Shown piece after piece: positions 17,144-61,195 of a DNA stretch of 64,000 nt. The DNA comes from Polyangiaceae bacterium (GTDB taxonomy: Bacteria; Myxococcota_A; Polyangia; Polyangiales; Polyangiaceae). The position numbers were made by a program, and so were the translations under genes. Location: positions 128,001 through 192,000 of the forward strand of contig JANRKO010000047.1 in the NCBI GenBank assembly GCA_033763455.1, given 5' to 3'. The stretch's first letter is position 1. Every line of letters starts with the position of its first letter. The notes beneath the pieces were generated by a model. That model made no database searches and had not been told where the DNA came from. It saw nothing but the letters and a program-made list of their open reading frames with translations.

Positions 17144-17376
17144 CCTCGATTAGAGGTATGGCACGTTTCGGAGATGCTAATCAACACTCGGGTCCCCGTC
17201 TTCGAGGGCGCATTTGCGAGGGTTACGCGAAGTGGTTGCGGGGCGCGCCAACCCGGGCGAAACAGCCATCCCCCGCCCAACAAACAATCGGCGCGCAACT
17301 TTGCATGCTTTACTTCCCACAATCCTTTTCCGGGGATCCGTTGCACCAGGCGTGGTAGCTTGATATGCGTGGTGTT

Positions 17377-42984: not shown

Positions 42985-45612
42985 CTACGGAGTATTTAAG
43001 ACTTCGCCCATTATGGCGCGGTATTTTTCGGCGATCTCGTCTTTGCGGCGAGGATCAGCTTCGGCCTCCCGCGCCGCATTGCGGAGCGCCCGGGCGATAA
43101 CGTGAGTTGCACCCATTTGTTCGGCTGCCGAGACAACCCTAAGCCATGCGTCGACGCTCGGCTGCAACCGAGCCGCGGCTTCGTAGTGGCGCAGCGCATT
43201 CGCCGGGCGACCTCTGGAAACGAAGGTTGCTGCCACCTGGACCTCTCCCTCCGCACAGCTCGGCGCCTCCACGCAGCTGGCCGTTAGAAAAGCTGTAGCC
43301 GCGCGATCCAGACGCGTCTCATCCTCTTGTTGGCTGGCGACACTCAACCATCGGGAGTAACAGCTGAGGGAGGCAGTAGCTCCACAACCTTCCTCGAGAA
43401 TCGCAACGCCTTCTTCCGGTCGGCCGAGCGCGGCCAGCATTAAAGCGCGAACCTCTAGTGCTGCTGACTTGTGCGGTGCCAGTTCCCTCATGATCTTAGC
43501 GTCGTGCTCGATGATTCGGCGCGTGGGCTTGATATCCGCCTGCCGGACCAAGCCAGCTGATAGCTCCCCGACAAGCAGCCATGCCCGCATTTCGCGAGCA
43601 TCGTATAGCTCGGGATCGCGCGAAACTGCGTCGTTGATCAGGCGGAGCTTCTCGCGCTCAAACTTGCCCCCAGTTGATAGACGAGCTAGGTGTAGCAGCG
43701 ACAGCGCGCCGGCGGGTCCCTCGGGAACGATGCGTAGTAGCTGCGACACATCCGCGCTCCATCGCAAAGCGTGCATAGCGGCAAGGTGGGCGGCTCCAGG
43801 ATCGTATTCTGCGGCCAGCCGCAAGTGAAGAAACGCCTGCTCATTGGCGCGACGGCCGCGTAAGAGTTCAGCAACAAAGAGGTGCGCATGCGAGTCACGC
43901 GGGTCGCGCTCCAGCGCCCTTGAGGCCCATACTAGGGGAACCCCCACGTGACCCCTGCGCGCTGCCAAGCCCCCGAGGAGTGGCAAGTACGCATCCCCTG
44001 GGTGACTGACCATGGCGCCCCGGAGCTCGGCCATGAACTTTTCCACTTCTTTCGGGTCTGACCAGGCTACGGATTCGTAGGACTCACGTAACTGCTCGCG
44101 GTGGGCTTGAGCGGAAGGCCCCGCCATGGCCGTCCCGAGTAGCGACGCTGCAAAAATTCCTCCAATTGAGCTAAGCCACACGCGGTGTTTTGTACGACTC
44201 GTCACAGGTTGGATGTCTGGAGCGGCTCGTGCGGAAAGACTTCCAAGTAACGCGAAGAGGGCGATGCTCACTGCAGGCACCTCAAGCGCCAAATCAACCA
44301 TGTTGTGGAGCAACAATACAGCAACGGCGAGAGCTGCCGCGGCGGATGCAGAGCGTTCGCCAATTCGCGTGCGAGCGGGGCGAAGTATCCAGAAGACCGC
44401 GCCGACCGTACCCAATGTAACGGGAATGCCCCATTCAGCCGCCCACTGCATCAGAAAGTTCTCTGCATGAGCATAAATGAGATGCCCCCGCCCTCCGTGG
44501 TAGGGAGGAAAGGCGGTTTCAAACGCACCGCGCCCCACACCAAACCAGGCGTTATCAAGAATCAGTGCAGGGGTCCAGGACAAGAGATCAATTTTCTCGG
44601 TCCCCTCGTTCAGGAGCCGCGTAATGACACCTGGCTCTACGGAAAGCCAAAGCAGGGCGCCCCCAGCAGCAATACTCGTGAGTATTACCAAAGGGGCATC
44701 GGAGGCTCCCATCCTGCGCCGCTGGCGGGAGTAGCGAACGACCATACCCACAGAAAACGCGACTAGTCCAAGCGCCAGGCTGATGAGCCCACCACGCGAC
44801 GCAAGGAGCGCGCTCACTGCCATAACCAGCGCGCCCGAGGCCGCCAATAGCCAGCGCGGGGCCGCGCTTTCCCGGACGAGCATGCAGGCCAGCCCGCAAA
44901 ACAAGCCGAAATTTAGATACCCCGCTAGATTGTTTGCGTTAACGAACGGCGAGATGATCCCCCCACCATGTGGACGATAGAGCCCGTAGACAATCTCGGC
45001 GCCGACGAGCCAGTGCACAAACGTAACCGCGGCAATGATCCCAGCACTCACCGTGAGGATCAGTGGAACCACTTGACGATGACCCCGCCGCTCCACCGTA
45101 CCGGCCACCGACGCAATCAGGCCGTAAATAACCCACTTTAAACCTTCAGCGCGCGACGCACCTGGATCCAGAGACAGACTCCCCATCTGTAGCAACTCGC
45201 CGCTAAAGGGGATCAATGCTCGCCGCCACACATCCGCCACTCCCGGGCTCAGGTGAACAAGCCAGGTGATGGGCATAGGCACTGACTGAAGCAGCGAGTA
45301 CGCTGCCAATGTGAACGCCGCCAAGCTTATTGGTGCCACGCTCCAGTAGGTTGAACGCATGGCAAGGAGCGTGACTGCGAGCGCACCCAGACTCACGGCC
45401 AATAGTACAGGGCGGTGTACGCTTCCAAGTGCGAGTGCGGACCCAAGCACCACCAGCGATAAGCCCACCGCTGCGCCGCGGTCTGCATGCCTATCGACAA
45501 CGGTGAGCATCTGCTGGAGCGGCCCATACGGCTCGCCCTCGCTCGCCTGTCGCTGACGCGATCGTCGGCGGCGCCCGACGTGCTCATAGCTCGGCGTTGT
45601 GCCCGCATCCAT
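42985..45612 (-). CDS. O-antigen ligase/O-oligosaccharyltransferase-like protein fused to a TPR-like helical C-terminus
   Basis: PFVNANNLAGYL, ASRGG, WFGVGRGAF, HAENFLMQ..EWG, LHNMVD; long Ala/Leu/Arg/Glu helical-repeat tail. The start at ATG 45612 is inferred to avoid overlap with asnB. Confidence 0.75.
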   Translation of the reverse strand: MDAGTTPSYEHVGRRRRSRQRQASEGEPYGPLQQMLTVVDRHADRGAAVGLSLVVLGSALALGSVHRPVLLAVSLGALAVTLLAMRSTYWSVAPISLAAFTLAAYSLLQSVPMPITWLVHLSPGVADVWRRALIPFSGELLQMGSLSLDPGASRAEGLKWVIYGLIASVAGTVERRGHRQVVPLILTVSAGIIAAVTFVHWLVGAEIVYGLYRPHGGGIISPFVNANNLAGYLNFGLFCGLACMLVRESAAPRWLLAASGALVMAVSALLASRGGLISLALGLVAFSVGMVVRYSRQRRRMGASDAPLVILTSIAAGGALLWLSVEPGVITRLLNEGTEKIDLLSWTPALILDNAWFGVGRGAFETAFPPYHGGRGHLIYAHAENFLMQWAAEWGIPVTLGTVGAVFWILRPARTRIGERSASAAAALAVAVLLLHNMVDLALEVPAVSIALFALLGSLSARAAPDIQPVTSRTKHRVWLSSIGGIFAASLLGTAMAGPSAQAHREQLRESYESVAWSDPKEVEKFMAELRGAMVSHPGDAYLPLLGGLAARRGHVGVPLVWASRALERDPRDSHAHLFVAELLRGRRANEQAFLHLRLAAEYDPGAAHLAAMHALRWSADVSQLLRIVPEGPAGALSLLHLARLSTGGKFEREKLRLINDAVSRDPELYDAREMRAWLLVGELSAGLVRQADIKPTRRIIEHDAKIMRELAPHKSAALEVRALMLAALGRPEEGVAILEEGCGATASLSCYSRWLSVASQQEDETRLDRAATAFLTASCVEAPSCAEGEVQVAATFVSRGRPANALRHYEAAARLQPSVDAWLRVVSAAEQMGATHVIARALRNAAREAEADPRRKDEIAEKYRAIMGEVLNTP

Positions 45613-45720
45613 GAAAGTGAAAATGTATCGTACAATTCGCGCTGGGTCTGCCCCCTGCCTCGATGACCCACTGCGGCACGCTTCAGTAAGCCGGGCGAAC
45701 GAGCGGCACTTCTGCCGCTC

Positions 45721-45735
45721 GCTATTTGTGTGCCA
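45721..45735 (-). promoter_or_regulatory. Putative sigma-54 (-24/-12) promoter for the ligase-TPR gene
   Basis: The minus strand reads TGGCACACAAATAGC, i.e. GG-N10-GC with one mismatch to TGGCAC-N5-TTGC. It lies about 110 nt upstream of ATG 45612 in a divergent intergenic region. Confidence 0.35.
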
Positions 45736-45745
45736 TAACGCCGCC

Positions 45746-47734
45746 ATGTGTGGCATCGCCGGTATTCTCTGGTCTGGGCACCAGGAGCTCGGCAACTCCG
45801 TCGCAACCGTCCGCCGGATGACCGACGCGCTCAGCCACCGTGGCCCCGATGGCGCAGGTGTCTTTGCGCGCAGTGCAACCGGCGCCTTGCTTGAGAACAC
45901 AGGTACCGCCCGACCACCAACTTCCCAGCAATTGTCGGTGAAAAGTGCGGGCCAATCCCTCGCGCTTGGCCACCGTCGCCTTTCCATTATCGACCTCGAA
46001 GGGGGCGCCCAGCCCATGTCCGAAGCTAGCGGTCGCATATGGGTAACCTTCAATGGCGAAATTTATAACTATCCCGAGCTCCGCGCGCAGTTGGAGGCAG
46101 AAGGCTGCGTTTTTCGCACCCAGAGTGACACCGAATCTATCCTGCACGCGTACCAGCGTTGGGGGCATAGCTGCGTGGAGCACCTGCACGGAATGTTCGC
46201 CTTCGCGCTCTGGGACGAAGCCGATCAGAGCCTATTTCTTGCCCGTGATCGCCTGGGCATCAAGCCGCTGCTTTTCGCACACACCGCCGAAGGTTTTCTA
46301 TTTGCCTCCGAACTCAAAGGCCTACTCGCCTCTGGCTTACTCAACGCCCAGGTTCGGCCAAGTGGCATAAAACGCTTCCTCCACAATCTGTATATCCCCG
46401 CTCCCGAAGGGCCGCTTGAAGGTGTGGGGCTGCTTGAGCCCGGCCACACGCTGCTGCTCCGCAATGGGCAAGAACGCAAAGAACGTTACTGGAAGCTGGA
46501 TTTTAGCCCCGGAATTCGACGCTCTGATACGGATTGGCTTGCGGATTTTGACCGGACTCTGCGTGATGCTGTGCGCTCACACCGCCTCGCCGACGTGCCT
46601 TTGGGAGCATTCTTAAGCGGTGGCCTTGATTCAAGCGCGGTCACAGCACTTTTGTCGGCGCCAGGCCAGGCCCCCGTTCTTACAACAACAGTAGGTTTTG
46701 ACGACGTCGCGTTCGACGAATCCGAGGACGCCCAGCGAGTCGCCAACCACTTGGGCACAGACCACGCCGTAGTTCGCGTTACAAACCCCGACATTGAGGC
46801 CGCACTAGAGCGCGTATTGAGCGCTTACGACCAACCCTTCGCCGACCAATCCGCCATTGCCACGTTTCTACTCTGTCAGGGTGCGCGCCAACGCATGAAA
46901 GTAGCGTTAGCTGGTGACGGTGCTGATGAGCTACTCGCCGGATACCCGCGCCACCGGCACTACCTGGCTCTGGAAGCGTTACGCACCATAAGCGGGCCTT
47001 TGAGCGCTGCCGCGGGTAAAGTTCTTGTTGAAGCAGGTTCGCGCTTGCAGGGGCGCGGAAGGCGCGTGGCCGACCAAACCGGAGCCTTCCTGGGATCGGC
47101 GCCTCGCAAACCCGACACCACTTTCTCCTACGGCTATCTCCGCAACGCCTTCCGCGGCGGCCTCTTCGAACGTTTGGCCACTGAGGAATTTCAGCAAGAA
47201 ACCGCGGCCGTGGATCCTTGGGAACACCTGCACAGGATCGTGGCGCAATCGCACGCGCCCAACCGCATGCAGGGGCTCCTCGAAATGGAGATCCACAGCT
47301 ACTTGCCGAACGATATCCTGCACAAGGTGGACATCGCGAGCATGGCCTTTGGCTTGGAGGTTCGCGTGCCCTTTCTCGATCACCGCCTGGTGGAATTGGC
47401 CGCGAAGATGCCGCTTCATCTAAAGTGGAATGGGCGACAAACGAAGGTGGCTCTCAGGCGCAGTGTGGCAGCTTTACTGCCCAGTTCGACCTTCAAGAAA
47501 ACGAAGCAAGGTTTTCATCCGCCCATTGCCTCGTGGTTTCGAACTTCCGGGCGCACCATTGTGCAAGAAACCCTCCTTTCCCAGCGTGCGCTTGAACGTG
47601 GCTACTTTCGCCGCCACGTTCTAGAAGCCCTCATCTCAGATCACTTGAGCAGCCAGCACAACCACGGCCCTCAACTCTGGGCACTTCTTCAGCTCGAATT
47701 TTGGCACCGAAATTTCGTCGACACGCACCCGTAA
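45746..47734 (+). CDS. asnB: Asparagine synthase (glutamine-hydrolysing)-like amidotransferase 2
   Basis: MCGIAG, HRGPD, GHRRLSIIDL, FNGEIYN, FLSGGLDSS, GDGADELLAGY, LHKVDIASMA..LEVRVPFLD. Confidence 0.92.
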   Translation: MCGIAGILWSGHQELGNSVATVRRMTDALSHRGPDGAGVFARSATGALLENTGTARPPTSQQLSVKSAGQSLALGHRRLSIIDLEGGAQPMSEASGRIWVTFNGEIYNYPELRAQLEAEGCVFRTQSDTESILHAYQRWGHSCVEHLHGMFAFALWDEADQSLFLARDRLGIKPLLFAHTAEGFLFASELKGLLASGLLNAQVRPSGIKRFLHNLYIPAPEGPLEGVGLLEPGHTLLLRNGQERKERYWKLDFSPGIRRSDTDWLADFDRTLRDAVRSHRLADVPLGAFLSGGLDSSAVTALLSAPGQAPVLTTTVGFDDVAFDESEDAQRVANHLGTDHAVVRVTNPDIEAALERVLSAYDQPFADQSAIATFLLCQGARQRMKVALAGDGADELLAGYPRHRHYLALEALRTISGPLSAAAGKVLVEAGSRLQGRGRRVADQTGAFLGSAPRKPDTTFSYGYLRNAFRGGLFERLATEEFQQETAAVDPWEHLHRIVAQSHAPNRMQGLLEMEIHSYLPNDILHKVDIASMAFGLEVRVPFLDHRLVELAAKMPLHLKWNGRQTKVALRRSVAALLPSSTFKKTKQGFHPPIASWFRTSGRTIVQETLLSQRALERGYFRRHVLEALISDHLSSQHNHGPQLWALLQLEFWHRNFVDTHP

Positions 47735-48555: not shown

Positions 48556-51500
48556 TCACCAGAGGACCAGGACTTTCCCTCGATACGTCGTCGCCGCACT
48601 CCTGGTCTCACCGATGGCGATGTCGCCGTAACCGTCGCCGTTCAGATCGTTAATGGCGCCGCTCCTCGAACTGCCGCCACCGAAACCAACCGGGAGCGTG
48701 TAGGTGACGTCTGCGACACCAACGATATCCCCGCCGGCTGTCGCGGCTGACCCGCGAAGGATGTACAGCTTAGGCGGGGCAACTCCGCCTTCGGACTTGC
48801 TAGTAAAGACCACATCCGGCTCATTATTGTCCCCGATGAACGAAACCTGAGTGCTTGTCCCAGAAAATCCACCACCGACGATGACGCTACCGAACGCATC
48901 CGCTGTAAGGGTAGCTGCTGAATTGGTGAAGTGGGCGACGGTTCCCCCGAAGGGACCAACAGCGGCGTTGCCAAAAAACAGATCGGGCTTGTTGTTAGCA
49001 CCACCGACACCTACTGCTGGGTTACCAGACAGCTGTCCTACCAGGGCTAAGGTCTGGCTACCGTTCGATCCTGCCACACCTGCGGAATGCGTTGCGGCAG
49101 CTGCCGACAAGGCAGTCTTATTCGCCGTGCCTTGGAATGAGTACACCTTGTTCAGCCCAGGCGCAGAAACGATGAGATCGGCCTTATTGGGGTCGTAGAG
49201 ATTCCCTATCCCGAGAACTGCGCTACCAAAGGCCCCGCTAAGACCGAAAAAATCTTCATTCCGAACCTCGATCGCGTCCGTCCCGTAGGCCTGAGGGATG
49301 GAGAGTGTGCCCGGGTACGGCTTCTTGCCCAGGAAGATAACAGCCAACCCTTTGGCCCTGATCGAACCATTTTCGGACACGGAATTATACCGGTTCGCAC
49401 CGACTACAAAATCCGCGACACCGTCGCCGTTAAAGTCGCCTAGCCGTGCGATAGAAACACCAAAGGCGCAGCCGCTGAGCTTGCTGTCCGCAACCGTGTC
49501 GACGGACAGTACGTAGCTTGCGTCAATATTGGTGAGCGTCGTTACCGTCGCCCAGTCAATCCGGCTAAAGATGTACACCTTGTTCTCACTCGGGGAACCA
49601 ACGCCAACGTCGAGGGCTCCGTCGCCGTCTATATCCCCGAGAACTGCGACTGCTTGCCCGAACCCGTTTGGACCGGTGATCGTGACGTTCGGCGTTGACG
49701 GGTATCCGTTGGCCGAGCCCCGATAAATTTCTACGTCGTTGACAACGGAGACAGGGGTGAGCGGCCATCCCTGCGCACCCACAAGAAGGTCAGCAAACGC
49801 GTCGCCATCGATACTTGCAGATCCGTCCACTCGGCGCTCCTTCGCGTTCGTGTCGCCGTTATCCAGCAGGGTCACGTTGAATGTCGCCCGGGTTGGTCCG
49901 GCGTTTGTAATGTCACTCACGTTCCCACCGGCGTCTGCCGAAGTGATCGCGAAGTAGTAATCAGTCTCGATGAATAGGCCTGAAGCCAGTACACTCTCGC
50001 TTGCGCCTGGGGACTGTGGCAGGCCCGAAATCGCAACGGGTGTCGCCGCCAAGAATTGCGTCATGTTGGTGATTGGAGACTTGGAACGACGTAGGTCGTA
50101 GCTAGCCACCGCCGCGCCTGAATCTGCGGGTGCAAGCCAATCAACTTTCATCTTGGTGGCTCGACGCTCAAGAGCGGGAACGCTCACCGTGAGGCTTGCG
50201 ATGGCACTCGGTTTGACCGTGTCGATACTCAGCGGCGCGATGCTCGCCGACCCAACACCGAAGCTTGGAACCGATTCCGTCTGCGCCAAGAGGGTTGCAC
50301 CTTGAGCGTCAGTCAGAGTGGCAGAAGCCACGGTAGCAAAACCGCTCCCGTCCGTAGTAGCTTCCACCACCATATTGCCATTCAGCTTAAAGGTGACCTT
50401 TACCCCAGATGCTGGCACTCGGCCTGAGCCTGGGTCCGTTTCAACCTTGACCTGCAGTTGGCCCTGCCAACCTGCCGCAACATCAGTATCCGAAGCAAGG
50501 TTGAGCTTTGTCGTGCCAGGAGCTGGCGAGATCCAAGTAACAACTGGTGTATTCCCCACCGTGACGGTGCATGGTTGTGCGAGCGACCCCGTATTTCCCG
50601 ACGGCTCCACAAACACGGCTGATAAGGCATTGCTCCCGAGGGCGAACGGCAAAGAACCAAAACTCGCATTTCCTGCCCCATCAGCCGTGGTTACGTAGTC
50701 CGTCGCGCCACCATTCGTCACCTTCAAGGTTAGAGGCTGGCCGGGCGGCGACTTTAAGGTGACTGGAACCAATGCAGGCGGCGAGGGTGTATTCTCCTGT
50801 CTCGTGCAAAGGTTGTTGGGAATGTACGGCGTAACAGTGGGAACCGTTGAATCCACCCAAACTAGTGTCGCACCGCTGGTGTTCGTGGCCGTCGACGGAG
50901 CCGTGACAGCTACGCGCAGCTCGGTAGCCTTGTCGAGCGTACCGTTCGCTAGAACGCTGCTTTCCGTGAGCCTCGCGTTGGTAAAGCGGATAACATTGCC
51001 CAGGTTATTCGGGCAGCCATCAGACACCTGCGCGGGCGTAGCGGTTGCCGAGCCGATCACCGCCAGGGTGCCACCAGCTAGCCCGGAAAGAAGCTGCGCA
51101 GAACCACCCGCAGTGTCCGTGCAAGCGACCACCGTGAACTGCGCACCCAACGTGCCCCCATCGGCATCCTTCAGGGACTGCGCGGCGGTGGCCGCTAGGA
51201 TGTTCGTCGACGGATCATTGGTGACGCTCGGAGTGGGAGTGATGATCTGGACGCTTGGAAGTGTGGACGCGCATTTTACGTTCTGGAGCGTCTGAGAGAC
51301 GAGGTTCCCCGCTTCGTCCGAAAGAGTTAGGTTGAGATCAAAACCAGCACCGCCCGGGCACGTGACATTGACACAACCGCCGTTAGTACCGTTGGCTACT
51401 CCGTTGGTGGTAGCTGCCACACATGCCGGCGAACCCGTGCCCACGGCGACGCAGAAGTTATTCTGGCCAGCACCGAGCGTGGCTGCGAGATCGACTGCAT

Positions 51501-52503
51501 CGGGCGACGTGGTGCTCCCACAGACTTTGAACTGAACCTCAGGTGCGTTGAGGTCTACATCATCCGAGGGGCCGAAATACTGCCCTCCCGCAATTCCAGA
51601 CGGCGCAAGCACGGGGCCAGCCGTATCCACGTGGAACGTGGGTTTCGAGGATTTCGTGGTTTGACCTGCCTGCGAGGTACACGTGGCTTCCGCGGTGAAA
51701 TCACCGTCTGGAACAAGCGTGACACCGGCAAAGGTAGCTACCCCGCCTGACGCAGGCGCAGCCAAGGACTGTGCCCCATCATTAATGCTGAGGAGAACCT
51801 GACGCCCATCTTCGACGTTAGTGGTGACCTCAAATGTTACCTGGTAGGGAGAGCCATTCTGGCTCACGCGATCACCAGCAGGCGCTGCCTCGCCGTTGAG
51901 GCTCGGATGCATGGCACTGATCACGGGCTTAGCTATGGTGCACACGACCGGCGAGCAAGCAACGGTTACGGGGATTTCCGCGCTACATTCTGGCGCCGCA
52001 CCCACCTGCACCTTAAGATTCACTGTCGCGTTCGAGTCCAGCTGAACGCCGGTAAAGACAGCGGCGTTTCCGCTGACCGTTGCGGTGCCGACTTGCACGT
52101 TGCTGGCAAACAGCGTTGCGGCGGTGCCCTCAGCCGCGGAAGTCGCAACGCTTACTGTAGTCTGAAAGCCATTCGAACAATCGGTCGTTGCATCCGCCGC
52201 GGCTGTGAGCGTTGCGCCCGAAACCGGCGTCAAGAAAGAGGCCGATGGACACATAACGCCGGGTGTTCCAGCCACTCCACCGCCGCCAGCCATCCCGCCC
52301 ATTGGCATACCGGGGGCGCCGCCAACTCCTGCCCCCGCAGCACCGCCGGTGGCCTTGGCGCCGCCCGTCTTCCCACCGCCGGTACCCGCCGCTCCGCCTA
52401 GCGCTGTGTTTGGCGAGAATTTCGGCTTCTCCTCAGAACCACAGCCCACAAGGCTCATGAACGTAATAATACCTACCCCAATTAGAGAAGAAGTCCCGCG
52501 CAT
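48556..52503 (-). CDS. Large surface lipoprotein: Gly-rich linker, Ig-like repeats, FN3-like domain and C-terminal FG-GAP/VCBS beta-propeller
   Basis: MRGTSSLIGVGIITFMSLVG-C lipobox; VDWLAPADSG..YDLR..YYFAITSADAGGNVS (FN3-like); GDIDGDGALDVGVG, GDFNGDGVADFVVG and NDLNGDGYGDIAIG repeats. Confidence 0.85.
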   Translation of the reverse strand: MRGTSSLIGVGIITFMSLVGCGSEEKPKFSPNTALGGAAGTGGGKTGGAKATGGAAGAGVGGAPGMPMGGMAGGGGVAGTPGVMCPSASFLTPVSGATLTAAADATTDCSNGFQTTVSVATSAAEGTAATLFASNVQVGTATVSGNAAVFTGVQLDSNATVNLKVQVGAAPECSAEIPVTVACSPVVCTIAKPVISAMHPSLNGEAAPAGDRVSQNGSPYQVTFEVTTNVEDGRQVLLSINDGAQSLAAPASGGVATFAGVTLVPDGDFTAEATCTSQAGQTTKSSKPTFHVDTAGPVLAPSGIAGGQYFGPSDDVDLNAPEVQFKVCGSTTSPDAVDLAATLGAGQNNFCVAVGTGSPACVAATTNGVANGTNGGCVNVTCPGGAGFDLNLTLSDEAGNLVSQTLQNVKCASTLPSVQIITPTPSVTNDPSTNILAATAAQSLKDADGGTLGAQFTVVACTDTAGGSAQLLSGLAGGTLAVIGSATATPAQVSDGCPNNLGNVIRFTNARLTESSVLANGTLDKATELRVAVTAPSTATNTSGATLVWVDSTVPTVTPYIPNNLCTRQENTPSPPALVPVTLKSPPGQPLTLKVTNGGATDYVTTADGAGNASFGSLPFALGSNALSAVFVEPSGNTGSLAQPCTVTVGNTPVVTWISPAPGTTKLNLASDTDVAAGWQGQLQVKVETDPGSGRVPASGVKVTFKLNGNMVVEATTDGSGFATVASATLTDAQGATLLAQTESVPSFGVGSASIAPLSIDTVKPSAIASLTVSVPALERRATKMKVDWLAPADSGAAVASYDLRRSKSPITNMTQFLAATPVAISGLPQSPGASESVLASGLFIETDYYFAITSADAGGNVSDITNAGPTRATFNVTLLDNGDTNAKERRVDGSASIDGDAFADLLVGAQGWPLTPVSVVNDVEIYRGSANGYPSTPNVTITGPNGFGQAVAVLGDIDGDGALDVGVGSPSENKVYIFSRIDWATVTTLTNIDASYVLSVDTVADSKLSGCAFGVSIARLGDFNGDGVADFVVGANRYNSVSENGSIRAKGLAVIFLGKKPYPGTLSIPQAYGTDAIEVRNEDFFGLSGAFGSAVLGIGNLYDPNKADLIVSAPGLNKVYSFQGTANKTALSAAAATHSAGVAGSNGSQTLALVGQLSGNPAVGVGGANNKPDLFFGNAAVGPFGGTVAHFTNSAATLTADAFGSVIVGGGFSGTSTQVSFIGDNNEPDVVFTSKSEGGVAPPKLYILRGSAATAGGDIVGVADVTYTLPVGFGGGSSRSGAINDLNGDGYGDIAIGETRSAATTYRGKVLVLW

Positions 52504-52718
52504 TGATCCACTCCGGTGATGCCAAACCATAATGTCAGCCAAAAACTCTAGCAGGCTGACTAGGAGATGAAACCCCTAATTTTTTTCGCGAAACGTCCGT
52601 TTGGAGGTCGAGTGATCCCGGCCTTTGGTTCGGTGCCACAGTGGCAGCCTGCTTGGACGTTGCGAAATAGTGCACTACGAGAAGTGGTTTGCCGTATCCA
52701 ACGAGGCTCGTGCTCCAA

Positions 52719-52997
52719 ATGAAACGCTCGTTTACCATTCCTTCCGACGTTGTGAGCGAAGTCATCAACGGCGAGGCAATGCTGCTTAACCTCAGTACTG
52801 GGCGCTACTTCAGCCTCAATTCCACTGGTGCTTTTATCTGGCGGCAGCTCGAAACGCACGGCGACGTTGGCCGGATTGTCGGCGAGCTCGCAGCGACCTA
52901 TTCGCTCGACGAACGCAAAGCTGTGGAGGACGTAAACGCGTTGCTCTCGGAACTTACCGCACAGGCTCTGATCACCCCTTATGTCGGCACGGGATAA
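52719..52997 (+). CDS. Lasso peptide RiPP recognition element (B1, PqqD family)
   Basis: GEAMLLNLSTGRYFSLNSTGAFIWRQL...IVGELAATY....A.EDV..LL.EL matches the PqqD/RRE pattern. ATG 52719 follows GAGG. Confidence 0.92.
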   Translation: MKRSFTIPSDVVSEVINGEAMLLNLSTGRYFSLNSTGAFIWRQLETHGDVGRIVGELAATYSLDERKAVEDVNALLSELTAQALITPYVGTG

Positions 52998-53433
52998 GCT
53001 GATTCGCCGACTTCAGCTCGGGCTTGCGCTGACCAAGGGGGTCTTTGGTTGCGCTGTCATTCAACGCGGCTTGGCTAATTCTGACTTGCCGGCGCTCTGC
53101 GCACGCTTAGGTATACAGTTAGGACGGGATCGAACGGAGCCGAAGCTGGAGCTGGTAAGCGAGCAAGATCCAGCTGTTCGGCTTGCCGTTCGAGCGACCC
53201 TCCGTCTTTCACGCACCGTATGGCGCAAGCCAACGTGCCTCCAGCAATCCCTTCTAGCCGGTTTCTTGCTCCGCTCTAGAGAACCAGTGCTGCGCATCGG
53301 CTGGTGGAAAACTCCCGAATCGCAATCAGGCCATGCGTGGATCGAGGTCGGCGGTAAGGCGATAGCGGGGCTGTCGGGTGGGGACCCTCGCTGGGCCGAA
53401 AAGATAGGTGTACTTGGTAGAAGTGATGTCTAA
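52981..53433 (+). CDS. Lasso peptide leader peptidase (B2, transglutaminase-like)
   Basis: TCLQQSL (catalytic Cys), LRIG, GHAWIE (catalytic His). It overlaps B1. Confidence 0.9.
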   Translation: MSARDKLIRRLQLGLALTKGVFGCAVIQRGLANSDLPALCARLGIQLGRDRTEPKLELVSEQDPAVRLAVRATLRLSRTVWRKPTCLQQSLLAGFLLRSREPVLRIGWWKTPESQSGHAWIEVGGKAIAGLSGGDPRWAEKIGVLGRSDV

Positions 53434-53445
53434 TGTCCCAGCCGC

Positions 53446-54378
53446 GTGCCCTCGAGCTTCAAAAAATTCCAACTAAACGGGCACGTGCTCCATACCCAAT
53501 TGCCCCTGCCAGCTGCCACTGCGTCTGAAGGGGCTCGTACCCCAACCAGACTCGACGTGAACCGGCTTTCGCGCAACATACCCTCGACCCCTCCAGAGGG
53601 AATGGTTTTAGCCGAGTATCGTCGCGGAGCGATCGGGCACTGCGTTGCGCAGAATGAAGATCACTACGTGCTGCGCCTATTTGGGGCATGTGATTTCGTA
53701 ATATCCAGAGATCTGAGAGCTGTCGAAATTCGGCCCGCACCGGAAATCACCGACGACCATTTGGTAACTTGGTGCTGCGGTATCTTCTCTGCCTCTCTCG
53801 CTATTCTGTCGGGTGCCTGGCCGCTTCATGCAAGCGCCGTGAACCTACCTGAGGGCGACGGACTCGCCTTTGTAGGGGGCTCGGGCGCTGGAAAAACCAC
53901 GCTCGCCGCAGCTTGTTGCATGTTGGGAGCCCAACTTGTAACCGACGACGTCTTAGTGACTCAAACGGACACGACGGGGGTGGTAAGCTGTTACGCGGGC
54001 TCGACTGAGCTCCGGCTTAGGGCCCACGCGCTTGATCCGTCGAACGTGCCAAGTGAGTGGGCGCGGCGTAAGACGGCAGATGGCAGGCTCGCCGTGAGAC
54101 CCAACTTGGTCGTGAGCGATCAGACGACGCTTCGTACCGTCGTGGTTCCGACGCGAACGGGGACAAGCTCCTTCAAGCTTACTCAGCTTAATGGACCGGA
54201 AGCTGTGCTCGAGTTGGCAAAGTTCCCCCGCGTCGCCGGGTGGCTTGAAGCGGGTAGGCATGCCGAACGCTTCTCTAGGCTCGCAGCGATCGCGCGCGGG
54301 GCTGCCGTCTTTCGCTTAGAAATGCCCAGCGATTCCGCCGAGCAAACAGTTTCCACCCTCCTGACGCAACTTGTTTAA
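53446..54378 (+). CDS. HPr-kinase-like lasso peptide kinase (K)
   Basis: PLHASAV, GGSGAGKTTLAA (P-loop), LVTDD; located between B2 and the cyclase. Confidence 0.88.
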   Translation: MPSSFKKFQLNGHVLHTQLPLPAATASEGARTPTRLDVNRLSRNIPSTPPEGMVLAEYRRGAIGHCVAQNEDHYVLRLFGACDFVISRDLRAVEIRPAPEITDDHLVTWCCGIFSASLAILSGAWPLHASAVNLPEGDGLAFVGGSGAGKTTLAAACCMLGAQLVTDDVLVTQTDTTGVVSCYAGSTELRLRAHALDPSNVPSEWARRKTADGRLAVRPNLVVSDQTTLRTVVVPTRTGTSSFKLTQLNGPEAVLELAKFPRVAGWLEAGRHAERFSRLAAIARGAAVFRLEMPSDSAEQTVSTLLTQLV

Positions 54379-54385
54379 GGTGCAG

Positions 54386-56149
54386 ATGCTTCCCTATTTG
54401 GCAAACTTGACCGCCTTTTATTCAGAGAACCCGGCGCGCCTGGAGGAGCTGGCCCGCAGGTTGACTGAGCAGACTCCCGAGTTCAGGGTGCAACGGCCCC
54501 ACCCCTATTGGGTCGTGCAAATGCGCCCTCTGCCGCACTCACCAGACCTGACCGCAGAACTGGCCCGGCGCGGGCTGTTCTTCCTCGAAGGGCCTGAGTA
54601 TTTTCAGACATTAAATGCTGAATTCCTCCCGGATCCCTTGCTCGAAGAGTTGCGGAAAGACATCCCGCTGCTAGCTAAATTCGAAACGGATCTGGGCTTG
54701 CTTCACATCAACAACGAGGGAACGGCAACGTTGGTTCGGTCCTGTGCCGGGGGTGTCCCTCTCTACTATTGGCAGGTGCGGGACGTGTTTGCCATTTCGT
54801 CCACTCTTCACCAACGAGTGCACTGCTTTCCAGAGGAACCTGCGAACATCGACCCACTAGTTTGTGCGATGCATGCGAGCGGCGTCGGCGTGTTCCCCGA
54901 AGGGCGAACGACCGTGAAGGGAGTGCGCATTCTGGAGATAGGCCACCTCCTGAAGGTGTCGCGGCGTCTTCACCAGCCCTTGATGTATTGGCCAATTCCG
55001 CGATTCGAAGTTTCTCCGATGGATCCGGAAGCTTGGCTGGCCAGTGCAGAAATGTTGAAAAAGACGCTCCTCAAGAAAATGGATCGAGAGATGTCTTCCA
55101 GTGGCAACAACCTGGTCTCATTCTCGGGCGGAGTGGACTCATCATGTGTGGTGGCCTTAGCAGGCGCACTCAGCAAACCGACTGCGACGATTTCGTTCAT
55201 CACTCCACATCGCGGAGACCAAGCCGAGCAGCAGCGGCAGATCCAGATTGGCCTCGCCCATGCCGGCATAGGTCAACACCTCAGCGAAGTGCTCTCGAAT
55301 TCGTTGAGGGCAAGGTTGGCAGTGCAGGCCCCCCCACTTCCACAGATCCAGCTCCATCCCGTACTCAATTTCCTCCCCCGGCTGGTTGACTTGTGGGGGC
55401 CGGTGACGCTCGGCGGTGGGGAATTTGCTGACCGCCTGCTTGGCGGACGCACTCAAACGATTTGGGATCTGGCTCGTGATTCAAGCCTCGCAGGGCTTCG
55501 GCGATACACAACTCCGCGCGACTTCCTAGGCCTGAGCAAGGCTCGAGCTCTTTGGTTGGTAACGCCGATGGGGAAATTCCGAGGCAGCCCGTTTCCCGTT
55601 CGCTTGCGCCCATGGGCTCGAAATGACTTGAACAACGAATACACAGCCTGGCTTGAGCAGACTATCGGTCGAAATGACGTCCTTCCGCGCTGGCATCTCC
55701 GTCGCCGGCTCATGATGAATAGAGCGATTCCGATGAACTGGGAAGCCTGCAGCCGGTTGGGCGTTCGCCGGGTGTACCCATTTCTTTGCCGAACGATTTT
55801 GGACCTGGCGCTCAATTCGCACCCTTCCGACCACTTTGGTGTTCTGCCTTCCGGGGCACGTAGCGGACCCAAGCGGATGCTGAGAAGGTCCCTAAGCGAA
55901 ATTGTCCCAAGAGAGGCCCTCTACCAGGCTGATAAGCCGCGGCCGCGGCACCCTCACGCGCCCGACCCTCTCCCCACGGAATTTTTCTCCGCCGCCCGGT
56001 CCCAGGCTGGGGAGTTGGGGGACGTAATTGCCTCCGAGGCCCTTGCAACGGTATGGACGGCACACTTCCCAGAACACGACGGATTGCAAGTCCTCGGGCT
56101 TCTGAATATAGTCAACGCCCTTCGCACCCGACCGCTAGGGTCAACTTGA
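54386..56149 (+). CDS. Lasso cyclase (C; asparagine-synthetase-like, no N-terminal Cys glutaminase site)
   Basis: SFSGGVDSS PP-loop, GGEFADRLLG, YPFL, PKRMLRRSL...VP. It lacks the MCG N-terminus of the two true AsnBs in this window. Start ATG 54386 (alternative TTG 54371). Confidence 0.88.
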   Translation: MLPYLANLTAFYSENPARLEELARRLTEQTPEFRVQRPHPYWVVQMRPLPHSPDLTAELARRGLFFLEGPEYFQTLNAEFLPDPLLEELRKDIPLLAKFETDLGLLHINNEGTATLVRSCAGGVPLYYWQVRDVFAISSTLHQRVHCFPEEPANIDPLVCAMHASGVGVFPEGRTTVKGVRILEIGHLLKVSRRLHQPLMYWPIPRFEVSPMDPEAWLASAEMLKKTLLKKMDREMSSSGNNLVSFSGGVDSSCVVALAGALSKPTATISFITPHRGDQAEQQRQIQIGLAHAGIGQHLSEVLSNSLRARLAVQAPPLPQIQLHPVLNFLPRLVDLWGPVTLGGGEFADRLLGGRTQTIWDLARDSSLAGLRRYTTPRDFLGLSKARALWLVTPMGKFRGSPFPVRLRPWARNDLNNEYTAWLEQTIGRNDVLPRWHLRRRLMMNRAIPMNWEACSRLGVRRVYPFLCRTILDLALNSHPSDHFGVLPSGARSGPKRMLRRSLSEIVPREALYQADKPRPRHPHAPDPLPTEFFSAARSQAGELGDVIASEALATVWTAHFPEHDGLQVLGLLNIVNALRTRPLGST

Positions 56150-56170: not shown

Positions 56171-56326
56171 ATGGAATCGCAAGCAATGAATGAAGACGAT
56201 GTGACGGCTCAGAACCTAGCTAGCTACACCCCACCTCGACTCTTGGAGCTAGGTTCGGTTCAAGAGATAACGCTTGGTGTACCAAGCGCCGCCCCCGATA
56301 TCGACGACCTCGGGGACATGTCCTAA
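56171..56326 (+). CDS. Lasso peptide precursor (A), 51 aa; leader ...YTPPRLLELGSVQEITL, core GVPSAAPDIDDLGDMS
   Basis: Manual translation gives MESQAMNEDDVTAQNLASYTPPRLLELGSVQEITL-GVPSAAPDIDDLGDMS*. Leader has Y-17, P-14, L-12, G-8, T-2; core has Gly1, Asp8 and C-terminal Ser. It starts 21 nt after the cyclase stop (alternative start ATG 56186). Confidence 0.92.
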   Translation: MESQAMNEDDVTAQNLASYTPPRLLELGSVQEITLGVPSAAPDIDDLGDMS

Positions 56327-56379: not shown

Positions 56380-57672
56380 ATGACCCCCTCCGTCTCCCCC
56401 ACCCAAATCCACGTCGTTGTAATGGGCATCGGCTACGTCGGCCTGCCCCTCGCTGTTGAGTTTGCCAAGGCGGGCTTCCAAACTGTCGGGCTCGATTACG
56501 ATCTCAACAAGGTCAACGAGCTCAACGCGGGCCGTTCATACATCGGCGATGTTGCAACAGCGGATCTTGCGCCGCTCGTAGCTAGCGGCAAACTGAAGGG
56601 CACCAATCAAACTTCGGTTATCCGCGAGGCTGATGCCGTCATCGTGTGCGTGCCAACGCCGCTCAATAAGACGAAAGACCCGGATATGCGGTTCATCGTC
56701 GCCGCAGCCAATCAGATTGCAGAGCATCAGCACCCGGGGATGATCATTGTCCTTGAGTCGACGACGTACCCTGGCACCACGAGCGAAGTTCTGGTGCCCA
56801 CGCTCACGGAAAAGGGCTTCACCGTCGGGAAGGATGTCTTCATTGCGTTTTCGCCCGAACGCGTAGATCCGGGGAACGAAAAGTTCCAAACGAGGAACAC
56901 GCCCAAGGTTATCGGCGGCGTAACGCCCGAGTGCTTGCGCAAAGCAATGGCGCTTTACGAGCATGTTATCGACACGCTTGTACCCGTCTCTTCCACCGAG
57001 ACGGCGGAGATGGTGAAGTTGCTCGAAAATACTTTTCGGGCCGTCAACATCGGCCTGGTAAATGAAGTGGCCATGATGAGCCGGAGGCTGGGTGTAGATC
57101 CCTTTGAGGTGATCCGAGCGTGCGCCACCAAGCCCTTTGGCTTCATGCCGTTCTATCCAGGGCCCGGCCTAGGCGGCCACTGTATCCCGATCGATCCGCT
57201 TTATCTCTCCTGGAAGCTGCGCTCGCTGAAGTACCAAGCGCGATTTATTGAGCTCGCCGACACGATCAATAGTGCGATGCCGGAATACGTTGTTGAGCGC
57301 GTAACGGACGCTTTGAACGCAAAGAAGAAGCCGATCAATGGCTCCAAGATCCTTATCTACGGCGTGGCTTACAAGCGGGACGTTGATGACGTCCGTGAAT
57401 CCCCTGCGTTTACGATCATGCACGATTTACGTGAACGCGGCGCAGTCCTAAGCTACATGGATCCCCACGCTCTGCACGTGAATGAGGATGGTTTCGACAT
57501 GACGAGCGTGCCCCAGTCCACGAGCTTTGCGGAGTTCGACGTGGTGGTTATAGTCACTGACCATAAGTTGCTGGAGCGCGAACGCCTCTTGCGCGAGGCT
57601 ACGCTCATTGTCGATACGCGCGACGCACTGCGCGGGATTGATGGGGATCGGGCCAAGATCTACGGGCTTTAG
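56380..57672 (+). CDS. wbpA: UDP-N-acetylhexosamine 6-dehydrogenase (WbpA/WecC family)
   Basis: GIGYVGLP, CVPTP, LESTTYPGTT, FSPERVDPG, KLLENTFR.VNI, GPGLGGHCIPIDP, YKRDVDDVRESP. Confidence 0.9.
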   Translation: MTPSVSPTQIHVVVMGIGYVGLPLAVEFAKAGFQTVGLDYDLNKVNELNAGRSYIGDVATADLAPLVASGKLKGTNQTSVIREADAVIVCVPTPLNKTKDPDMRFIVAAANQIAEHQHPGMIIVLESTTYPGTTSEVLVPTLTEKGFTVGKDVFIAFSPERVDPGNEKFQTRNTPKVIGGVTPECLRKAMALYEHVIDTLVPVSSTETAEMVKLLENTFRAVNIGLVNEVAMMSRRLGVDPFEVIRACATKPFGFMPFYPGPGLGGHCIPIDPLYLSWKLRSLKYQARFIELADTINSAMPEYVVERVTDALNAKKKPINGSKILIYGVAYKRDVDDVRESPAFTIMHDLRERGAVLSYMDPHALHVNEDGFDMTSVPQSTSFAEFDVVVIVTDHKLLERERLLREATLIVDTRDALRGIDGDRAKIYGL

Positions 57673-57689
57673 GCCGTAGGCTCGGTTGG

Positions 57690-59219
57690 ATGGGTACTCC
57701 ACAAGCTCGGCGAATTCGGGAGCTCAGTCACAGAACAGTCCGGGGTGGGTTGTGGCTATTTGGCGGCACCGTTGGCACCAATGTCGCACGCCTGGGTGTC
57801 ACTGCTGCCTTAGCGCGCCTGGTGCTCCCGGAGGAGTATGGGCTCAACGTCGAAGCCTCGGTCTTGCTCGGTCTGCTTGCAGTGGCGGTTGAAGTGGGCC
57901 TGGGCCAGGCCATGATCCAGCGCAAGGATCTACTACCTCAGCACGAAAGCACTTCACTCACCATCACACTCTTGGTCGGCGCAGCTTCAGCTCTCTTGCT
58001 CGCCGGAGGGGCGAGCAGCTGGGCGGCCTTTCGCGGCATCCCAGCACTGACCGCACTGCTCCAGATCCTCGCTATTTCCCTGATCTTTCGCGCAACAAGC
58101 AGCGTGCCGCGCATGCTTATGATGCGCGAATTGCGATTTAAAGAGGTCTCCGTTGTACAATTTGCGGCCTTTATTGCCCAATCTATCACCAGCGTCGCTC
58201 TTGCCGCGGCCGGCTACGGGGCGCTCGCTCTGGCGTGGGGCGCAGTTGCAGGTTCATTGGTAGACGCGAGCTTGACGTTTCAGCGACGGCCCATTGCCCG
58301 TCCCCTGGACTTTCACTGGGCCCGAGGGCGCGAGCTTCTCTCCTTTGGTGGGGGCCTTACAGTTGCCCGCATGGCCAATACCGTCGCGCTCCAGAGCGAC
58401 AACCTGGTTGTCGGAATGGCACTTGGCCCCGCGGCGCTTGGCCTCTACAGCAGAGCCTACAGTGTGCTCGCCATCCCGGCAGGCCTTCTCCAGAGCATTG
58501 ACGGTGCACTCTTCACTGCGCTTGCCCGGCTGCAGGATGACGTCCCCCAGCTGCGCTCGGCCTTCCGCTCGGGAATTTCGCTCACGGCGGCTCTGGTAAT
58601 CCCAATCTCAGCATTCATCACGGTGATGGCGCCGGAGCTCGTAAGATGCCTGATGGGGCCCAATTGGGACGGGGCCGTGTTGCCCCTTCAAATCTTGGCG
58701 CCTACGATGTTCTTTCGAACAGCCTACAAGATTGCGGCCGTAAGCGTTAGAGCGCAGGGGGCTGTGAACCTGTTGGCCATTACTCAGGTTAGCTATGCAC
58801 TCAGCGTCGTGGCTGGAGCTTTTTTAGGATGCCGCTTTGGCCTCGCGGGCGCAGCGGTGGGCGTTGGGTGCGCCGTCTTTTTTCAGTATCTATTTCTCGT
58901 CGGCGCGGGGGCTCGGCTTCTTGGGCTGCCCGTTATTCGTACTCTCCTCCCAAGTTATCAACCGCTGCTCCTCGGCGGGACGGCGGCAGCCCTAACCTGG
59001 GGTATTTCCCGCCTGTGCGGACTTGCCGCCGTGTCTTCTCCTCTTCGTTTGTTGTTCAGCGGCATGGCGTTCCTCGGTTTGGTCGGTGTTGCACGGCGAG
59101 TCGCCCCCAACAAGGCACTCGGGCCAGAACTCGTACGAGTGCTTGACGCCGCCTGGCGCCGCGTGGCGTTGGTTTGGGGATCCCGGCCTGCCGCCCCCGA
59201 GCCGAATAGCGGCCACTAA
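57690..59219 (+). CDS. wzx: Polysaccharide flippase Wzx (WzxC-like, copy 2)
   Basis: LARLVLPEEYG, GLGQAMIQRK, MRELRFK, SDNLVVG..LG...LGLYSRA; about 12-14 TMs. Confidence 0.88.
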   Translation: MGTPQARRIRELSHRTVRGGLWLFGGTVGTNVARLGVTAALARLVLPEEYGLNVEASVLLGLLAVAVEVGLGQAMIQRKDLLPQHESTSLTITLLVGAASALLLAGGASSWAAFRGIPALTALLQILAISLIFRATSSVPRMLMMRELRFKEVSVVQFAAFIAQSITSVALAAAGYGALALAWGAVAGSLVDASLTFQRRPIARPLDFHWARGRELLSFGGGLTVARMANTVALQSDNLVVGMALGPAALGLYSRAYSVLAIPAGLLQSIDGALFTALARLQDDVPQLRSAFRSGISLTAALVIPISAFITVMAPELVRCLMGPNWDGAVLPLQILAPTMFFRTAYKIAAVSVRAQGAVNLLAITQVSYALSVVAGAFLGCRFGLAGAAVGVGCAVFFQYLFLVGAGARLLGLPVIRTLLPSYQPLLLGGTAAALTWGISRLCGLAAVSSPLRLLFSGMAFLGLVGVARRVAPNKALGPELVRVLDAAWRRVALVWGSRPAAPEPNSGH

Positions 59220-59292
59220 GAGATCATTGGCCCCCCTAGCAATAGCGTCTTTGCGGGTCGAGCTTCGCGCTTTTTCGTACTAGGGTTCGGCC

Positions 59293-60321
59293 ATGCCTCG
59301 CGCATTGATCACAGGAATCACAGGTCAAGACGGCTCCTACCTCGCTGAACTCCTTCTCGGCAAAGGCTACGAGGTTTGGGGGATGGTGCGGCGCTCTTCG
59401 AGCTTCAACACTCAGCGCATCGATCACCTGTACCGCGACCCTCATGAATCCGGAGTGCGCTTACGGTTAGTCTACGGAGACCTGAACGATGCGTCTTCCT
59501 GCGCCAGCATTTTGGAGGAGGTGCGGCCCGACGAAGTCTACAATCTCGGCGCCCAAAGCCACGTGCGCGTAAGCTTCGACGTTCCTGAGTACACGGCTGA
59601 AATCACGGCCCTCGGAACCATTCGCCTGCTCGAAGCCATCCGCCGCTTGAAAGTCCAAACCCGATTCTACCAAGCCTCTTCGAGTGAACTTTACGGCAAA
59701 GTCATCGAAACCCCTCAATCCGAAAAGACGCCTTTTTACCCCCGCAGCCCGTATGCTGCCGCCAAAGCTTACGCGTTCTACATCACTCAGAATTACCGCG
59801 AAGCCTACAGCCTGTTCGCGGTTAACGGCTTGCTCTTCAACCATGAAAGCCCGCGTCGCGGCGAAACCTTCGTGACGCGCAAAATCACTCGCGCCGCCAC
59901 ACGCATCAAGCTCGGCCTTCAAGATAAGCTATACCTCGGCAATATCGAGGCCAAGCGCGACTGGGGCTTCGCTGGCGACTACGTGGATGCGATGTGGCGC
60001 ATGCTCCAAGCCGACACACCTAGCGACTACGTGATAGCAACCGGAGAAACCCACAGCGTTCGCGAATTCCTGGGAGAAGCCTTCGGACTACTTGACCTCG
60101 ACTACCGAGACTATGTGGCGCACGATCCTCGTTACGAACGGCCCGCCGAAGTCGATCTACTTCTTGGCGACGCTAGCAAGGCAAGGCGCGAGCTCGGCTG
60201 GGAGCCAAAAGTGAGCTTCAAAGCGCTCACCAAGATGATGGTGGACGCAGATATGGTGTTAGCCAAAGAAGAAAAGGTGCTCGGGGCTCACCGAACGAGC
60301 GTAGCGGCGGGGCCGGGGTGA
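59293..60321 (+). CDS. gmd: GDP-mannose 4,6-dehydratase
   Basis: [67 protein letters not shown]. Confidence 0.97.
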
Positions 60322-60451: not shown

Positions 60452-61195
60452 ATGTCGAGTCATCGGGGCGGATCCAAAGTTGCATCGGCCGTAAGTTCTT
60501 CCGCGAACGAAGCTGAGCCAAGCACACCGCCTGCGCCGCGCGTGCTGCTCGAGCAAGTGTCTCAGGAATCGCTCCTGCTCAACAGCCGAGCCAACCTCCA
60601 GGTTGCGCTGCGTATCGGTGAAATCCTGGACCGCTACCTGCGTGAAATTCATGGCACGCCGCGAGAGCCCAAGCGAAGCCAAAGTTACCGTGAGATTGCG
60701 GAAGCCGCAAAGCTTGGGCGTAGTCCCTGTGTCCTGTGGCGCTGCGTTCAGATCCACGCTCTTGCCCAGAAGCTTCCCGAAATCCGAACGTTTGTGCATC
60801 TCAGCACTACCCACGTGAGGGCGGTAGTGAATCTGCCGCTGGAGGCGCAACGGCTCCTGCTCACGCAAGCTGAAGGCGAACGGTGGACGTGTGTTCGGCT
60901 GGAGAAAGCAGCCAGTGAGCTTCGCCGCGGCCCGCTGCGCGTGGTCGATGCTCCGGAAAAAGGCCGCCAATCGGGGTTCTTCGCATCACCCGGGGCGGAT
61001 GTCCTGAGAGGTGTGAATACGGCTTTGAGGCACCTCCGTCGGGCGCAGCAGCATGCAGGAGGGCCCCTCCCCGCGCACATTAAGCAGGACATCGAGCAAA
61101 AGTTGCAGCAGCTCGAGCAAGCTTGCGCCGAGGTCAAGGAGGCATGCACTTTTTCGAGTGCCCGTGCCTCCCAAAAGCCTCACGAGAGCTCCTAA
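60452..61195 (+). CDS. Hypothetical protein, possibly helix-turn-helix DNA-binding
   Basis: 247-aa helical ORF with SYREIAEAAKLG and LSTTHVRAV...ERWT..RLE segments. Confidence 0.6.
   Translation: MSSHRGGSKVASAVSSSANEAEPSTPPAPRVLLEQVSQESLLLNSRANLQVALRIGEILDRYLREIHGTPREPKRSQSYREIAEAAKLGRSPCVLWRCVQIHALAQKLPEIRTFVHLSTTHVRAVVNLPLEAQRLLLTQAEGERWTCVRLEKAASELRRGPLRVVDAPEKGRQSGFFASPGADVLRGVNTALRHLRRAQQHAGGPLPAHIKQDIEQKLQQLEQACAEVKEACTFSSARASQKPHESS

Follow-up and report, generated by a model that had tools for sequence, protein, structure and literature searches.

The window, i.e. the whole stretch of 64,000 nucleotides from a Polyangiaceae bacterium analysed here, contains at 56171..56326 (+) an open reading frame for a lasso peptide precursor (A) of 51 residues, consisting of a 35-residue leader and the 16-residue core GVPSAAPDIDDLGDMS. 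Translation gives the residues claimed in an earlier note on this DNA, followed by a stop codon. Numbered from the proposed cleavage site, the leader holds Tyr-17, Pro-14, Leu-12, Gly-8 and Thr-2, i.e. the YxxPxL motif and the Thr-2 expected of class II lasso precursors. The spacing given in the earlier note was reproduced on recount, and the precursor passes the NCBIfam lasso leader model NF033521 (25.7 bits versus a cut-off of 19). The core is acidic and ends in Ser as first described, with four Asp, no basic or aromatic residues, and a net charge of -4 before any phosphate. It lacks Cys, starts with the small residue Gly1, and has an acid in the 7-9 region, Asp8. Computed monoisotopic masses of 1540.6715 (cyclised) and 1620.6378 (with one phosphate) match the values of about 1540.67 and 1620.64 Da that had been calculated by hand.

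The full leader and core pattern had one match in the window and one in the 6.56-Mb genome as a whole, with none in 200 base shuffles of the window, the latter being only a rough control because the pattern was composed with this peptide in view. A second NF033521 match in the genome (contig C16, 19.4 bits) was rejected, as neither lasso genes nor the precursor pattern occurred within 10 kb of it. Judged from these sequence features, the precursor frame is a real lasso peptide gene and not a chance occurrence. The earlier note called it unannotated, which is true of the ORF track available to that reader, where the frame fell below the length cut-off, but not of the databases, since the exact 51-residue protein is already recorded in NCBI and in NCBI nr. 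A promoter scan returned one sigma-70-like site (56084-56112) at a chance expectation of 1.3 and was given no weight.

Four genes on the same strand precede the precursor. B1 (52719..52997, 92 residues from the ATG) is a RiPP recognition element (RRE) of the PqqD family (PF05402, 65 bits versus 23.4, scored on the frame starting at 52689). Its nearest solved relative is TbiB1 (5v1u, E 6e-9), and on the lasso-specific PqqD models it stays under the cut-offs (55.4 versus 70, and 50.9 versus 80). B2 (52981..53433, 150 residues), the only B2 of the genome, is a transglutaminase-like leader peptidase (NF033537, 47.5 bits versus 33; PF13471), so that the cluster has both peptidase and RRE. Cys86 and His118, which we take to be the catalytic residues of B2, are found in the usual motifs. 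The third gene (K, 53446..54378, 310 residues) encodes a predicted HprK-like peptide kinase, assigned by weak HprK-related matches below cut-off and by motif columns; against solved structures it gave only P-loop-level and weak HprK matches. The motif residues of K are His128, Gly144/147/149, Lys150, Thr151, Asp167 and Asp168, among which the catalytic set His128, Lys150, Asp167 and Asp168 is invariant across five kinases. The invariant columns agree with the BsfK motif as described in PMC10368454.

The fourth gene (C, 54386..56149, 587 residues from the ATG) encodes a putative macrolactam synthetase of the asparagine synthetase fold with an intact PP-loop (PF00733, 30.6 bits versus 21). On the curated lasso cyclase model NF033535 it scores 29.1 bits versus a cut-off of 525. 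Its profile search matched AsnB and beta-lactam synthetase, with no lasso cyclase among the matches listed, and a single-sequence search of solved structures found no relative. By sequence, cyclase C is strongly divergent from the curated lasso cyclases. The window also encodes two ordinary AsnB-type amidotransferases (17365-19209 and 45599-47734), distinct from the lasso cyclase; the one at 45599-47734 reaches 238 bits on the lasso cyclase model, above the true gene of the cluster, and is a trap for automatic annotation.

The gaps within B1-B2-K-C-A are -17, 12, 7 and 21 bp, and as far as sequence can tell every part of this RRE-protease-kinase-cyclase-precursor operon is present and intact. 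It contains no dedicated exporter, immunity gene or nucleotidyltransferase. No ABC exporter (D) was found among the genes from 42985 to 64000, the one ABC ATPase of the window lying about 46 kb off, and both NTP_transf_5 genes of the genome are on other contigs, one of them within another peptide cluster. The genome has two loci with RRE plus kinase in its 6.56 Mb. A second peptide cluster on contig C6 (L194:6468-10745) comprises an NTP transferase, an RRE, a radical SAM/SPASM protein, a weakly ScmC-like kinase, and a precursor that contains three Cys and ends in Ser; the likeness of the cluster to the SynChlorMet cassette is below cut-off only.

On the 3' side of the precursor, a nucleotide-sugar dehydrogenase, a Wzx-type flippase and a GDP-mannose 4,6-dehydratase (56380..60321, +) follow with gaps of 53, 17 and 73 bp, and they likely share a transcript with the lasso operon. 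Polysaccharide genes fill most of the window, the families having been checked for part of them, and they are likewise neighbours of the cassettes in relatives. Paeninodins and the linear polyphosphorylated peptides (LPPs) of Bacillota are often located near capsular polysaccharide loci, and a paper from 2026 calls their roles unknown (PMC13381572). On the minus strand, at 42985-46053, lies a gene for a large membrane protein with Wzy_C (O-antigen ligase-like) and TPR regions, which is a candidate for the step that would join polysaccharide to the peptide. At least seven relatives have genes for similar Wzy_C proteins of 800-850 residues close to the cassette. A gene for 247 residues directly after the dehydratase gene gmd (60452-61195, +) shows weak matches to ParB-HTH/LmbU-like regulators (E 0.015 and 0.005) and is a possible regulator of the locus. 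In the same-genus relative G001, the Wzx flippase between dehydrogenase and gmd (L024:15207-15890) appears to be internally deleted and frameshifted, and the lipoprotein described below and the lasso operon are intact beside the apparently broken gene.

The precursor is conserved beside homologous cyclases, both in G001, where the gene order is identical, and in other relatives. The G001 precursor passes NF033521 with 24.1 bits, and its core of 14 residues keeps Gly1, Val2, Pro3, Pro7, Asp8, Asp11, Leu12, Gly13 and the terminal Ser; Gln replaces Ser4, and Ile9 and Met15 are missing. Over the 25 codons from Tyr-17 to Asp8, 11 are synonymous, 8 non-synonymous and 6 identical, an excess of synonymous change. 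The cyclase gene of G001 is intact, the TGA within the match being upstream of its start. At E 1e-40, 16 of the 383 family genomes searched contained this cyclase type, with three candidates scored per genome and five of the 16 having seeded the profile. Among 401 genomes of the phylum it was found nowhere outside the family (5/401 matched, all within the family).

Cyclase and precursor remain neighbours in the relatives, and from 29 lasso loci we obtained 26 precursors (none in G102, G105 and G374) with a filter that demanded the leader and an acid at positions 7-9 and made no requirement for Ser. Ser is the last residue in 15 of these 26 cores and lies within the last three residues in 25; at each of the positions -4 to -8 it is present in only one or two. 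Among the 25 cores with Ser near the end, 10 carry it solely at -2 or -3, so that the rule for site selection may differ in this lineage; we know of no characterised kinase that accepts Ser at these positions. Thr-2 is present in 24 of the 26, 22 are net negative, 12 are free of aromatic residues, and several consist mostly of Gly with little bulk. Acidic, aromatic-free cores are thus usual in this group, and these traits of the present peptide are not surprising. At L053 in G274 the precursor is about 5 kb from the cyclase, with genes for a glycosyltransferase, a Wzy_C protein and an epimerase in between. Three metagenome contigs (L060, L066, L071) carry relatives of the kinase next to precursors whose aromatic-rich tails end in Ser, ordered B1-C-A or with A upstream of B2, and represent a different subtype.

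The earlier note proposed a Gly1-Asp8 macrolactam with Ser16 as the kinase target, and both proposals gained support. Asp8 is the only acid at core positions 7-9 and is conserved in G001, terminal Ser recurs among the relatives, and the kinase keeps its catalytic set. The characterised kinases PadeK, ThcoK, SyanK and PsmK modify the linear precursor at its C-terminal Ser and are able to attach several phosphates (PMC9266682, PMC8498205). By sequence and by analogy, the product is likely to have a Gly1-Asp8 ring and to be (poly)phosphorylated on its terminal Ser as in paeninodin, SyanA and pseudomycoidin, a reading that we consider the best one because G001 keeps both features and loses Ser4, and because Ser is near the end in 25 of 26 cores.

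The kinase could instead target Ser4 in the ring, as BsfK of Bradymonas modifies Ser3 in the ring, and the bsf cluster adjoins an FG-GAP gene according to PMC10368454. A precursor in a lipoprotein-linked cluster of a relative (G183, L141:7967-8152) is Bsf-like too, with Leu-2, Ser3 and no terminal Ser; in that genome the kinase is fused to a second RRE. In G001, however, Ser4 is Gln although the kinase is 69% identical to K. Among the 26 cores Ser4 is unique to the present peptide and Ser3 likewise occurs only once, and the present precursor has Thr-2 in its leader and Pro at core position 3, unlike Bsf. We regard modification of Ser4 as most improbable and retain Ser16 as the predicted site.

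Ile9, Leu12 and Met15 had been suggested to hold the tail in the ring. For Leu12 this is consistent with G001, which has no other bulky tail residue in common with the present core; Ile9 and Met15 are absent there. The residue right after the ring-forming Asp is an unlikely plug in lasso geometry, and Ile9 occupies that position. As an unlikely alternative, the product would be a branched cycle or a linear phosphopeptide, either because the divergent cyclase no longer threads its substrate or because the tail slips out. The cyclase scores far under the cut-off of the curated model, no aromatic plug is present, and several related cores are rich in Gly. Unmodified pseudomycoidin was isolated as a branched cycle (PMC6993621), and phosphopeptide families that lack a cyclase exist (LPP; PMC13381572). 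On the other hand, the PP-loop and the other motif columns are invariant in seven cyclase homologues, the adjacency of cyclase and precursor is maintained, and Leu12 is kept in G001. An acid at 7-9 recurs in the related cores as well, though the precursor filter demanded it. A threaded lasso is the preferred, predicted structure.

The note also held that so acidic a core argues against a typical antibacterial role. The many lasso peptides with antibacterial activity, the predatory habit of the host lineage and the patchy distribution of this cyclase type (16/383 family genomes) would suit an antibacterial that is exported for predation or for competition. The operon, however, has neither ABC exporter nor immunity gene, and the peptide carries four negative charges even before phosphorylation. 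Paeninodin and pseudomycoidin did not inhibit the strains tested (PMC6993621). The conclusion of the note is consistent with these inactive peptides and with the missing exporter. An antibacterial function is highly unlikely in our opinion, and most likely, by analogy, the product is an anionic phosphopeptide of a cell-surface polysaccharide system and not an antibiotic. The genes of that system share its operon.

Among known systems the closest counterparts are paeninodin (PadeK, ThcoK), SyanA/SyanK of Sphingobium, and pseudomycoidin (PsmK, PsmN), which like the present cluster have split B1/B2 and an HprK-like kinase. These terminal-Ser lassos also share with it the His-Lys-Asp-Asp kinase, a class II core ending in Ser, and polysaccharide neighbours. 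The present cluster differs from them in its B1-B2-K-C-A order, its strongly divergent cyclase, its Myxococcota host, the absence of exporter and nucleotidyltransferase from the operon, and a head-to-head gene for an integrin-like lipoprotein; many of its relatives, in contrast to these lassos, have Ser at -2 or -3. Its leader has YxxP (Tyr-17) in place of the WxxP of Bacillota paeninodins (PMC13381572). Lasso clusters with a kinase have been described in Bacillota, Proteobacteria and Bradymonadales according to the same paper.

The Bsf cluster of Bradymonas sediminis, from the class Bradymonadia, which is placed in Myxococcota, has a YxxPxL leader, a Gly1-Asp8 ring, a discrete RRE and the kinase motif in common with the present one (PMC10368454). 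It adjoins an FG-GAP-labelled gene and ribosomal protein genes, as several relatives of the present locus do, and the FG-GAP gene at its border was set aside by the authors of that study. Bsf differs in its Ile-2, Ser3 in the ring as the modified site, C-terminal Asp, ABC transporter and nucleotidyltransferase (PMC10368454). Its subfamily has Ile or Val at -2 and a Ser/Thr acceptor at core position 3, in contrast to Thr-2 and Pro3 here and in G001. The LPP clusters of Bacillota (PMC13381572) combine RRE, HprK-like kinase and a polysaccharide locus as here, and the cyclase-free relatives of the present locus resemble them, but LPP clusters have no cyclase, a signal-peptidase-like protease and Ser3, in contrast to the cyclase-like gene and B2 found here. 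By sequence, we predict the peptide to be a new member of the lassos phosphorylated on a terminal Ser, and neither a strict paeninodin nor a Bsf peptide.

Head-to-head with B1, 215 bp apart, lies a gene for a predicted lipoprotein of 1315 residues (48556..52503, -) with a lipobox Cys and matches to FG-GAP and Big_13. It consists of an Ig-like/Fn3-like stalk followed by a C-terminal FG-GAP propeller with three DxDGDG-type motifs. The lipobox was matched in 27 of 32 frames, by a loose pattern with at least two matches off the N-terminus. When the last 443 residues were modeled with an alignment of 27 rows, the pLDDT was 90 and the pTM 0.92; a single-sequence model of the last 547 residues reached a pLDDT of 30.9. 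Integrin alpha heads ranked at the top for the propeller model both in Foldseek (E 1.5e-11) and in VIA-align (Z 32.0, rmsd 3.1 over 354 residues), with other propellers in VIA-align at Z 29 and below and generic WD40 at Z 27-29. The identity to integrins is 12-22%. On this model the lipoprotein ends in a beta-propeller like that of the integrin alpha subunit; it differs from integrins in having no beta-subunit partner that could be seen, and an N-terminal lipid anchor in place of a C-terminal helix. The shared fold by itself shows no function. Complex prediction that paired the propeller, again from 27 aligned rows, with residues 22-51 of the precursor gave 0.01 versus a mark of 0.32, in a setting where the controls were unfolded and where ring, threading and phosphate are outside the model.

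Full-length homologues of the lipoprotein were found in at least 33 of the 383 family genomes, from 18 genera, at 30-50% identity outside the genus. In 29 of the 33 genomes an RRE and an HprK-like kinase are encoded within 5 kb, some of the linkage profiles having been built from the same loci after labelling by window-seeded profiles and Pfam. In G245 a cyclase and a precursor are near the lipoprotein in a region reaching the contig end; no peptide genes were seen in G083, G163 and G248, where the flank stops at a contig edge on one side. The spacing between lipoprotein and RRE has a median of 45 bp between open frames and is at most 2 kb in 29 of 31 cases. The maturing enzyme varies, being the present cyclase type in 12 genomes (in two of which cyclase and precursor are on another contig), a GATase-type lasso cyclase in 12, a radical SAM protein without cyclase in 4, and neither cyclase nor radical SAM at the thresholds used in G064 and G197. 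At the GATase-type loci the lipoprotein runs in the same direction as the cassette. A held-out phylum search matched 7 of 351 genomes, and two genomes from another family contributed three loci. In two of these loci, genes for kinase, RRE and radical SAM immediately precede the lipoprotein and a precursor lies on its downstream side; the third has none of them.

The cyclase-free clusters (L136:5230-14751 in G071, L137, L138, L139, L204 and L206) combine kinase, RRE, radical SAM and the same lipoprotein with a short, Cys-containing precursor that has a YxxP leader. Several of them add a signal-peptidase-like gene, an NTP transferase and an ABC transporter, and the one in G071 has a NusG paralogue upstream. 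They look like an unstudied family of radical-SAM phosphopeptides. G064 has the same layout without a radical SAM match. In G014 (L026, L155) the lasso cluster is split between contigs, at contig ends.

The lipoprotein could be a mere neighbour, i.e. a polysaccharide-binding adhesin that was placed once with the cassette and has been co-inherited since, and we regard this as a serious possibility, somewhat short of even. Most lipoprotein loci are among polysaccharide genes, several of them by rpsB/tsf, which makes shared ancestry plausible, and related genomes are not independent observations. Bap1/RbmC of Vibrio cholerae are a precedent from bacteria, in that their propellers bind exopolysaccharide directly, although these are eight-bladed and are not among the fold matches listed for the lipoprotein (PMC10102183). 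The link is also one-way and purely genomic. B2-like genes are present in 155 of the 383 family genomes, a tally that includes the unpublished genome G307, and by hand count 26 of these genomes are on the lipoprotein list of at least 33 genomes; most genomes with B2 lack this lipoprotein. Four of the 16 genomes that carry this cyclase type likewise gave no match to it, among them G274, which was searched over a flank of 36 kb. The second copy in G366 and one of the two in G052 have no peptide genes in the flank seen.

Against mere co-inheritance, the lipoprotein keeps its place beside the RRE across 18 genera although orientation, gene order and maturing enzyme vary. In G016 it stays with B1, B2 and kinase by rpsB/tsf, even though cyclase and precursor stand alone on another contig (L028/L154). 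Other neighbours are rarer than RRE plus kinase, with rpsB in only 7 and the dehydrogenase in 9 of the 33 lipoprotein-bearing stretches, a comparison that is biased as the stretches were picked around the lipoprotein. A control with the Wzy_C gene (1/33) was too insensitive and was given no weight, and no co-evolution is claimed from the lipoprotein tree, a quick tree with weak support. We somewhat favour the reading, based on gene neighbourhood, that the head-to-head lipoprotein is a working part of the same system, where it would bind the peptide, its sugar-carrying form, or the polysaccharide.

Taken as a whole, our explanation, which we consider probable, is that the frame encodes the precursor of a class II lasso peptide, that the four upstream genes make the product and phosphorylate it on Ser16, and that it belongs to a surface polysaccharide system of which, less surely, the lipoprotein is a working part. 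The chemical steps are deduced from characterised pathways. B1 would bind the YxxPxL leader, and kinase K would add one or more phosphates to Ser16 of the linear precursor. B2 would then cleave after Leu-1 and cyclase C would join Gly1 to Asp8 to give 1540.67 Da, corresponding to 1620.64, 1700.60 and 1780.57 Da with one to three phosphates. Leu12 would hold the tail, probably together with the bulky phosphoserine end. When its terminal modifications are missing, pseudomycoidin is unthreaded, and its authors propose that the modifications lock the tail (PMC6993621).

A bolder version, which we find doubtful, makes the propeller lipoprotein the dedicated surface receptor of the acidic, Ser-phosphorylated and perhaps sugar-bearing peptide. 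In that case its ligand would serve as a surface tag, a matrix linker or a strain-specific ligand of the polysaccharide coat, variable cores would be matched to variable propellers, and one scaffold would serve both lasso and radical-SAM peptides.

Article listings and the openings of abstracts, outside subscription journals and large lasso datasets, showed no paper on the lipoprotein linkage or on Polyangiaceae lasso clusters; the precursor may already stand in mining tables. The main text of PMC13381572 does not contain the words lipoprotein, integrin or radical SAM. The peptide alone is one further predicted member of a group described since 2016. What is new is the conserved integrin-like lipoprotein, which keeps its place beside RRE and kinase even where gene order and maturing enzyme differ. 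We set the cluster apart as a variant because of this lipoprotein partner, the divergent cyclase and the missing exporter, and if the propeller does not bind, the finding reduces to an ordinary cluster. The lipoprotein is a concrete candidate partner, and thereby a lead to what phosphorylated lasso peptides do, and the FG-GAP gene beside the characterised bsf cluster deserves a second look. If the lipoprotein is indeed the receptor, this would be the first assigned partner and role for phosphorylated lasso peptides.
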